Sequence record: OZ317122.1
From: a phage
Length of the DNA stretch: 64,000 nucleotides
Reading direction: 5' to 3' (one strand)
Positions 40,140 to 40,646 of this stretch are shown here, piece by piece. Both the position numbers and the translations under genes were made by a program. The stretch's first letter is position 1, and every line of letters starts with the position of its first letter. The notes under the pieces are model-generated. The model was given only the letters and a program-made list of their open reading frames with translations. It had not been told where the DNA came from and ran no database searches.

Positions 40140-40195
40140 GAGGTAATAGTATCACTACCTCATCAGTATGTAAACAACTTTGTGAAATTATTTTA
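40140..40195 (-). promoter_or_regulatory. T4-type early promoter with -10 region inside a 7-bp inverted repeat
   Basis: gatgagg taatagtatcacta cctcatc then gtaaacaactttgtgaaattattttaaatc. Confidence 0.5.
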
Positions 40196-40646
40196 AATCA
40201 TCTGCCCAATCGAGTTTAAGAGGCTCTTTGTATTCACGGTCAAGTACAACCGGAATTTGTACATCACCGCTAAATGATAAGGGCCCAACATTATAAGACA
40301 ATGTTATATGCGGTGTGTAATCATCAAAATCGTGTGTAGCACCTAGTGCCCGCGCATACATGTGTCGACAGCGCAGATATTCAGAATCTAGCACAAGTAC
40401 AAGAGTCGATCCATCTTGTGTTTTCCACACTTCTAAATGTCCAGAAGAAGCTACTTCAAAACTTCCACTCGATGGAACATATGGAACATTTACTCTCGAA
40501 TAACATATGGTCGAATGAATTTTTTCTCTAGGAACTGGATTAGGAACACGTAAAGAGCGCTGGAGTTCTTCCAGCGCGTCAAGTGTTAATTCTGAAAACT
40601 TAGCTGCTACATAAAGACCCGTTGAAAAGTCTTTAAATTCCATCAT
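40188..40646 (-). CDS. 57B: gp57B, 2H-phosphoesterase-fold protein (Acb1-type anti-CBASS nuclease)
   Basis: 152 aa; two H-x-[TS] motifs (HSTICYS and HITLSY); directly downstream of 57A as in T4. Confidence 0.75.

Follow-up and report, generated by a model that had tools for sequence, protein, structure and literature searches.

We analyzed a 64,000-nucleotide stretch of phage DNA (record OZ317122.1), referred to here as the window, around an open reading frame (ORF) that a sequence-only reading had put forward as T4 gene 57B, encoding a 2H-phosphoesterase-fold protein consistent with the anti-CBASS nuclease Acb1. The 152-aa ORF was found at exactly the coordinates given in that reading; it lies on the minus strand, which had gone unstated. 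According to the ORF listing of the window, it is intact and spans 459 nt including the stop codon. ORFs on the opposite (plus) strand within 40188-40646 reach at most 61 aa and are unsupported. The gene, its neighbors, and some features elsewhere in the window are as follows.

40188..40646, minus strand: acb1 (gene 57B), encoding a 152-aa 2H-phosphoesterase that, going by the T4 literature, would degrade cyclic di- and trinucleotide CBASS signals
40643..40873, minus strand: gene 57A, encoding the tail-fiber assembly chaperone, 76 aa (Pfam PF17594 GP57, E 2.7e-50; phrog_1002)
40873..41598, minus strand: gene 1, encoding dNMP kinase, with which the 1-57A-57B unit opens (Pfam PF21448 DNMK, E 7.9e-106)
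41229..41236, minus strand: late-promoter motif TATAAATA inside gene 1, a pattern match at the position of PL1 in the T4 record
41609..41645 (approximate), minus strand: middle-promoter-like region upstream of gene 1, with a MotA box (AATGCTTCA) and TATAAT, equivalent to T4 PM1
40120..40187, minus strand: PeSL element directly after the acb1 stop codon, with an early promoter (TTTACA-N17-TACTAT) in a 13-bp stem-loop
39857..40114, minus strand: internal-protein gene, 85 aa, leader MKTFKEF...TITE (phrog_3499, internal head protein, E 1.2e-49)
39547..39780, minus strand: second internal-protein gene, 77 aa, leader MKTYQEFIAE (phrog_8111, internal virion protein, E 1.2e-52)
37893-38525, minus strand: HNH endonuclease ORF, 210 aa (phrog_14736, E 6e-124)
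37133-37886, minus strand: tRNA cluster of 9 genes (Arg, Asn, Tyr, Met, Thr, Ser, Pro, Gly, Leu)
29730-30032 (probable true start, 29996), minus strand: acb2 (vs.4), the other anti-CBASS gene of T4 (PF24729 Acb2/Tad1 hairpin domain, E 2.1e-20; PDB 7UQ2 “Vs.4,” E 6.8e-54)

The product of the ORF is identical at 152 of 152 residues to T4 gp57B (NP_049750.1, RefSeq T4 genome) and is likewise identical to the 57B product of X03016, an older T4 record. The nucleotide sequences of the gene and its T4 counterpart differ at 10 positions, every one of them synonymous, which indicates purifying selection on an expressed gene. A Pfam search returned PF23474, “Anti-CBASS protein Acb1,” at 202.7 bits (curated cutoff, 27 bits; E 2.7e-60), with residues 9-150 aligned to positions 1-144 of the 144-position model. 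Acb1 was the sole family at E ≤0.1, and no LigT or 2′,5′-RNA-ligase family appeared at that threshold; NCBIfam had no model for the product. The crystal structures of Acb1 from Erwinia phage FBB1 (PDB 7T26 and 7T27) matched with an E value of 4.2e-62 and 68% identity over 141 residues. Homologs of the product were found by tblastn in 1,472 phage records.

We compared the product with the catalytic tetrad and ligand-contact residues described for Acb1 (PMC9117128). The tetrad (H44, T46, H113, and T115) is complete and aligns with that of the crystallized protein in 7T26. Since the contact residues Y12, W74, F107, E141, and W147 are also present, 9 of 9 functional residues are retained. The C-terminal lid region (145-152) is complete, and the product is untruncated, with the same end as in T4. 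Six homologs with 32 to 47% identity to the product, from Acinetobacter, Vibrio, Aeromonas, Cronobacter, Salicola, and Krischvirus phages, were aligned with it; H44, T46, H113, T115, and Y12 did not vary. A single-sequence AlphaFold2 model of the product was too poor for testing the fold (mean pLDDT, 37.9; pTM, 0.30); a compact 2H fold is predicted indirectly, through the 68% identity to 7T26. No sequence feature contradicts the Acb1 identity. The sequence-only reading had proposed alignment to characterized Acb1 as a check, with loss of the catalytic histidines as the adverse outcome; H44 and H113 are both kept, and the Acb1 assignment itself is borne out by the identity to T4 Acb1, PF23474, and 7T26. 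We conclude that the ORF is almost certainly acb1 (T4 gene 57B) of a Tequatrovirus close to, but not identical with, T4 and that its product is Acb1.

The assignment had been built in part on two H-x-[TS] motifs. Both are indeed present, as H44-S45-T46 and H113-I114-T115, and they are the only two in the product. One falls in each half of the protein (HST at 44-46 and HIT at 113-115), which is the arrangement that defines the 2H phosphoesterase superfamily. By itself, however, the motif pair is weak evidence for function. At least two H-x-[TS] motifs occurred in 16% of shuffles of the product (at least two H-x-T motifs in 2.2%), and two H-x-[TS] motifs occurred in 9 of the 68 six-frame ORFs of at least 100 aa in the window. 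These frequencies are what a chance ORF with chance motifs, and no functional gene, would have in its favor. Against it stand family and structure homology at E values near 1e-60, the 1,472 phage homologs, and the exclusively synonymous changes relative to T4, and we give that explanation no credence. The acb1 call is far above chance because it rests on homology (Pfam Acb1, PDB 7T26, and the identity to T4 gp57B) rather than on the motif pair.

That T4 gene 57B has been reported as Acb1, an enzyme that degrades cyclic oligonucleotide signals, agrees with the original description. Hobbs et al. (Nature 2022, PMC9117128) used activity-guided fractionation to assign a 3′3′-cGAMP-degrading activity to T4 gene 57B (NP_049750.1) and named the protein Acb1. 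T4 Acb1 cleaves 3′3′-cGAMP, cUA, cAAA, and cAAG and leaves cA4, cGG, and 3′2′-cGAMP uncut (PMC9117128). Structures of the FBB1 homolog revealed a 2H phosphoesterase fold of compact form, in which residues 145-152 cover the ligand as a lid; base stacking is provided by Y12, W74, F107, and W147, and the adenine N6 is recognized by E141 (PMC9117128). The H44/T46/H113/T115 tetrad carries out a metal-independent two-step reaction via a cyclic phosphate intermediate, and an H44A/H113A mutant is inactive (PMC9117128). During T4 infection, cGAMP-degrading activity sets in at ~15 min, and T4 Δacb1 grows normally in the absence of CBASS and is impaired >300-fold on CBASS hosts (PMC9117128).

These substrates, this mechanism, and the mutant and deletion effects come from the identical T4 protein, and for the present phage they are predictions. 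The product would be a small, metal-independent 2H phosphodiesterase that binds the 3′-5′-linked cyclic di- and trinucleotides that the CBASS cyclases of the host synthesize. Y12, W74, F107, and W147 would stack on the bases and E141 would read the adenine N6, with the lid (145-152) closing over the ligand. Acid-base catalysis by H44, T46, H113, and T115 would then allow the adenosine 2′-OH to attack the 3′-5′ bond, and cleavage would proceed through a 2′,3′-cyclic phosphate intermediate to a linear product with a 3′-phosphate. With the second messenger removed, CBASS effectors (nucleases and phospholipases) would stay off, and the phage could therefore complete its cycle.

A different reading of the 57B product is that of a generic 2H RNA enzyme, either a LigT-type 2′-5′ RNA ligase or an RNA 2′,3′-cyclic phosphodiesterase, with RNA or tRNA end repair as its main role and cyclic-oligonucleotide cleavage as a secondary one. 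The RefSeq T4 record and phrog_755 carry the label “RNA ligase,” and some phage records carry “RNA 2′,3′-cyclic phosphodiesterase.” The two HxT motifs of the 2H fold would suit such an enzyme, the phage tRNA cluster is ~2 kb from 57B, and the Acb1 reaction itself goes via a 2′,3′-cyclic phosphate. However, the Pfam result was confined to Acb1, the “RNA ligase” labels are outdated fold-level annotations that were inherited without experiments, and the identical T4 protein was isolated through its degradation of 3′3′-cGAMP (PMC9117128). Moreover, the defect of T4 Δacb1 appeared only where CBASS was present (normal growth without it, >300-fold impairment with it) (PMC9117128). We consider an RNA enzyme very improbable.

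The Acb1 reading places the gene directly downstream of 57A, and the junction is tighter than adjacency: the 57A stop codon and the acb1 start codon share 4 nt (ATGA), which puts 57A and acb1 on one transcript. The two genes are probably translationally coupled. The 57A product is 76 aa rather than the 80 aa of T4, owing to a 12-nt in-frame deletion (AGATGAAGCAAA in T4). Short direct repeats of AGATGAAG flank the deletion (~40646-40660, minus strand), which closely precedes the stretch shared with acb1.

The promoter motifs upstream correspond to annotated T4 sites. Within gene 1, the TATAAATA motif is offset by 362 nt, which matches the PL1 −10 region of X03016. Across the window, TATAAATA is not enriched (13 occurrences versus 10.6 expected); hence, it is the position shared with the annotated T4 site that supports the PL1 assignment. 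This motif likely drives late transcription of 57A and acb1. The region equivalent to PM1 is 95% identical to the T4 record by alignment. We infer that a gene 1-57A-57B unit with middle (MotA-type) and late expression ends with the acb1 cistron; such expression fits the onset of activity at ~15 min reported for T4 infection. A generic sigma-70 promoter scan of 39200-42400 gave 11 hits (11.1 expected from shuffles), and a terminator scan of the same interval gave 1 (1.8 expected from shuffled sequence).

The overlap with 57A and the historical gene name might suggest that 57B acts with 57A in tail-fiber assembly, all the more since the 57A-57B linkage is kept in distant Straboviridae. In Cronobacter phage JC03, however, a ~60-nt gap separates the 57B homolog from a small unannotated upstream ORF, and in Salicola phage SCTP-2 the homolog lies in a different context. 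In addition, the 57B product is an enzyme with a nucleotide-binding pocket, and T4 Δacb1 replicates like the wild type in the absence of CBASS (PMC9117128), so 57B is not needed for virion assembly. An assembly role is thus even less probable than an RNA enzyme. None of the three alternatives for 57B (chance ORF, RNA ligase, and tail-fiber assembly partner) was retained. A weaker novel reading than the anti-defense island discussed below is that Acb1 might also act outside CBASS, e.g., on RNA ends with a 2′,3′-cyclic phosphate, and that its tight, widely conserved coupling to 57A reflects this.

In a comparison of the surroundings of the gene among phages, those of Acinetobacter, Vibrio, and Aeromonas and the Krischvirus and Pseudotevenvirus phages all had genes in the order 3-1-57A-57B, and the genes after 57B differ from phage to phage among the distant Straboviridae compared. 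Therefore, acb1 closes a conserved block and borders on a variable region. In the Krischvirus Escherichia phage Skers, an annotated Dmd (L009, 2689-2892), an antitoxin-type anti-defense gene, is found three genes downstream of the 57B homolog. The 2.2-kb stretch around acb1 in the window is 99.8 to 99.9% identical to many Tequatrovirus genomes, e.g., those of Yersinia phage PYps35T and Escherichia phages a15 and 232Ecol030PP.

On the downstream side, the 68 nt at 40120..40187 match the region between 57B and ipI in T4 at 100% identity; the T4 record annotates PE2 and a stem-loop there. PeSL cassettes were described for the T4/PST phage pair as a TTTACW-N17-TAYWAT promoter consensus plus a stem-loop, flanking variable ORFs, and are thought to mediate modular gene shuffling (PMC4122927). 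Three elements downstream of acb1 conform to this definition, each with such a promoter and a stem-loop beside variable ORFs. They lie on the minus strand at 40146-40175, 39815-39844, and 39517-39546 and bracket the two internal-protein genes. Their hairpins have folding energies of −17 to −19 kcal/mol (z, −3.7 to −4.8), with −17.4 kcal/mol (z, −3.9) for the first. The promoter scan was informative for only two of the PeSL promoters; the third (TTTACT-N17-TACTAT, 39517-39546) was identified by pattern search alone. A fourth match to the promoter pattern, at 25215-25244, was not counted as a PeSL element, its hairpin being insignificant (z, 0.35). The acb1 unit ends, and a variable internal-protein cassette begins, at the PeSL element at 40120..40187. 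The two internal-protein genes lie outside the acb1 transcription unit because they have their own promoters.

The slot that ipI occupies after 57B in T4 is filled here by two different internal-protein genes. Both products carry capsid-targeting leaders of the form MKT[FY].EF... that end in [LI]-x-E (MKTFKEFATKTTITE and MKTYQEFIAE). The [LI]-x-E sequence is the cleavage rule of the prohead protease (gp21). The 85-aa and 77-aa proteins align with T4 IPI in the leader alone, and their 25 to 28% identity to it is leader driven; neither has a family in Pfam or NCBIfam. The concept of the capsid-targeting leader (CTS) is set out in a review, which also describes T4 IPI as a protein that is injected and inhibits a type IV restriction enzyme (PMC9026906). 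Variability of internal proteins has been attributed to a phage-host arms race (PMC9026906; PMC4122927).

The sequence-only reading had placed acb1 beside internal-protein-like cargo genes and regarded the stretch as an anti-defense neighborhood. The first point is correct, as judged from the phrog_3499 and phrog_8111 matches and the leaders. The second is only partly supported: the internal-protein genes occupy the slot of ipI, a proven restriction inhibitor, but their mature parts are unrelated to IPI. With ipI as its one precedent, an anti-defense neighborhood is a reasonable hypothesis. It is possible, though we think it unlikely, that the two PeSL-flanked internal proteins are injected inhibitors of host defense, cassette-swapped at the slot of the T4 GmrSD inhibitor ipI. 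If so, the stretch from 57B to the tRNA genes would be an exchangeable anti-defense island anchored by acb1.

Elsewhere in the window, acb2 lies ~10 kb from acb1. Since both genes are in one window, the phage carries both the nuclease and the sponge.

The HNH ORF occupies the exact site of tRNA-Gln in T4 and in phage 232Ecol030PP, and only the first few bases of the tRNA remain. ARAGORN found no tRNA-Gln. The insertion is present in 64 phage records at 95 to 100% identity and looks like a homing-endonuclease gene that replaced the tRNA gene. The adjacent tRNA cluster has neither tRNA-Ile nor the segB homing endonuclease; the T4 cluster reads Arg, segB, Ile, Thr, Ser, Pro, Gly, Leu, Gln.

Further observations concern other internal-protein and host-interaction genes. 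In T4, ipII and ipIII are carried between denV and the lysozyme gene e. Here, denV (31591-32007, minus strand) directly adjoins e (32067-32561, minus strand), and there is therefore no room for ipII and ipIII between them. A 157-aa ORF at 36269-36742 (minus strand; phrog_2280, unknown function) starts with MKSYTQFLNE, which resembles a capsid-targeting leader, and may encode another internal protein. In the tk-vs region, 27580-28047 (minus strand) encodes a 155-aa Macro-domain protein (Pfam PF01661, E 2.9e-6; phrog_335, “phosphatase”). Because Macro domains remove ADP-ribose, a role for this protein in host takeover or counter-defense is conceivable.

The acb1 call is right but already known: the protein is the same as the founding member of the Acb1 family, and the gene is already annotated “anti-CBASS protein Acb1” in Escherichia phage 232Ecol030PP. 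As a discovery, the call carries little weight. Its uses are annotation, public records often labeling acb1 “hypothetical protein” or “RNA ligase,” and host-range prediction. Intact acb1 and acb2 together should let a phage escape many CBASS operons and should leave it open to Panoptes-type guard systems, which respond to cyclic-nucleotide loss. Type II Panoptes restricts Tevenvirinae phages with intact acb1, and escapers mutate acb1 (PMC13577387); functional acb1 can thus be a liability. With type I Panoptes, deleting acb1 in T4 made no difference (PMC12657218). Any new biology left at the locus may lie in the variable internal-protein cassettes.

The closest known system is that of T4. The present locus shares with it the complete Acb1 sequence (152/152), the place of the gene after 57A, a 100% identical PeSL/PE2 region, and the middle and late promoter motifs upstream. 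It differs in the 10 synonymous changes in acb1, in a 57A gene that is 4 codons shorter, and in the replacement of ipI by two other internal-protein genes. The shorter 57A and the replaced ipI show that the phage is not T4 itself.

Relative to FBB1 Acb1 (7T26, apo; 7T27, with 3′3′-cGAMP), there is no change in the tetrad, Y12, E141, or W147, and the two proteins agree in length and C-terminal lid. FBB1 Acb1 has F and Y at the equivalents of W74 and F107, which are conservative aromatic swaps, and there is a one-residue indel near residue 80. A 165-aa “Anti-CBASS protein Acb1” (PDB 9Q2G/9Q2Y) is more distant. Both of its HxT motifs align (HVTVLY and HLTLAY) and the domain order is equal, but it is longer and its sequence similarity is marginal (E 0.004 to 0.03).

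Among anti-defense proteins outside the family, the cyclic-nucleotide sponge Acb2/Vs.4 shares its target pathway with Acb1. Its fold and mechanism, by contrast, are unrelated to those of Acb1, as it sequesters the signal and does not cleave it (PMC10312549; PMC12657218). Apyc1 (MBL fold), the AcrIII-1 ring nuclease, and poxins resemble Acb1 in destroying a host nucleotide second messenger (PMC9117128) but are structurally distinct from it and act on other substrates (cCMP/cUMP, cA4, and 2′3′-cGAMP).
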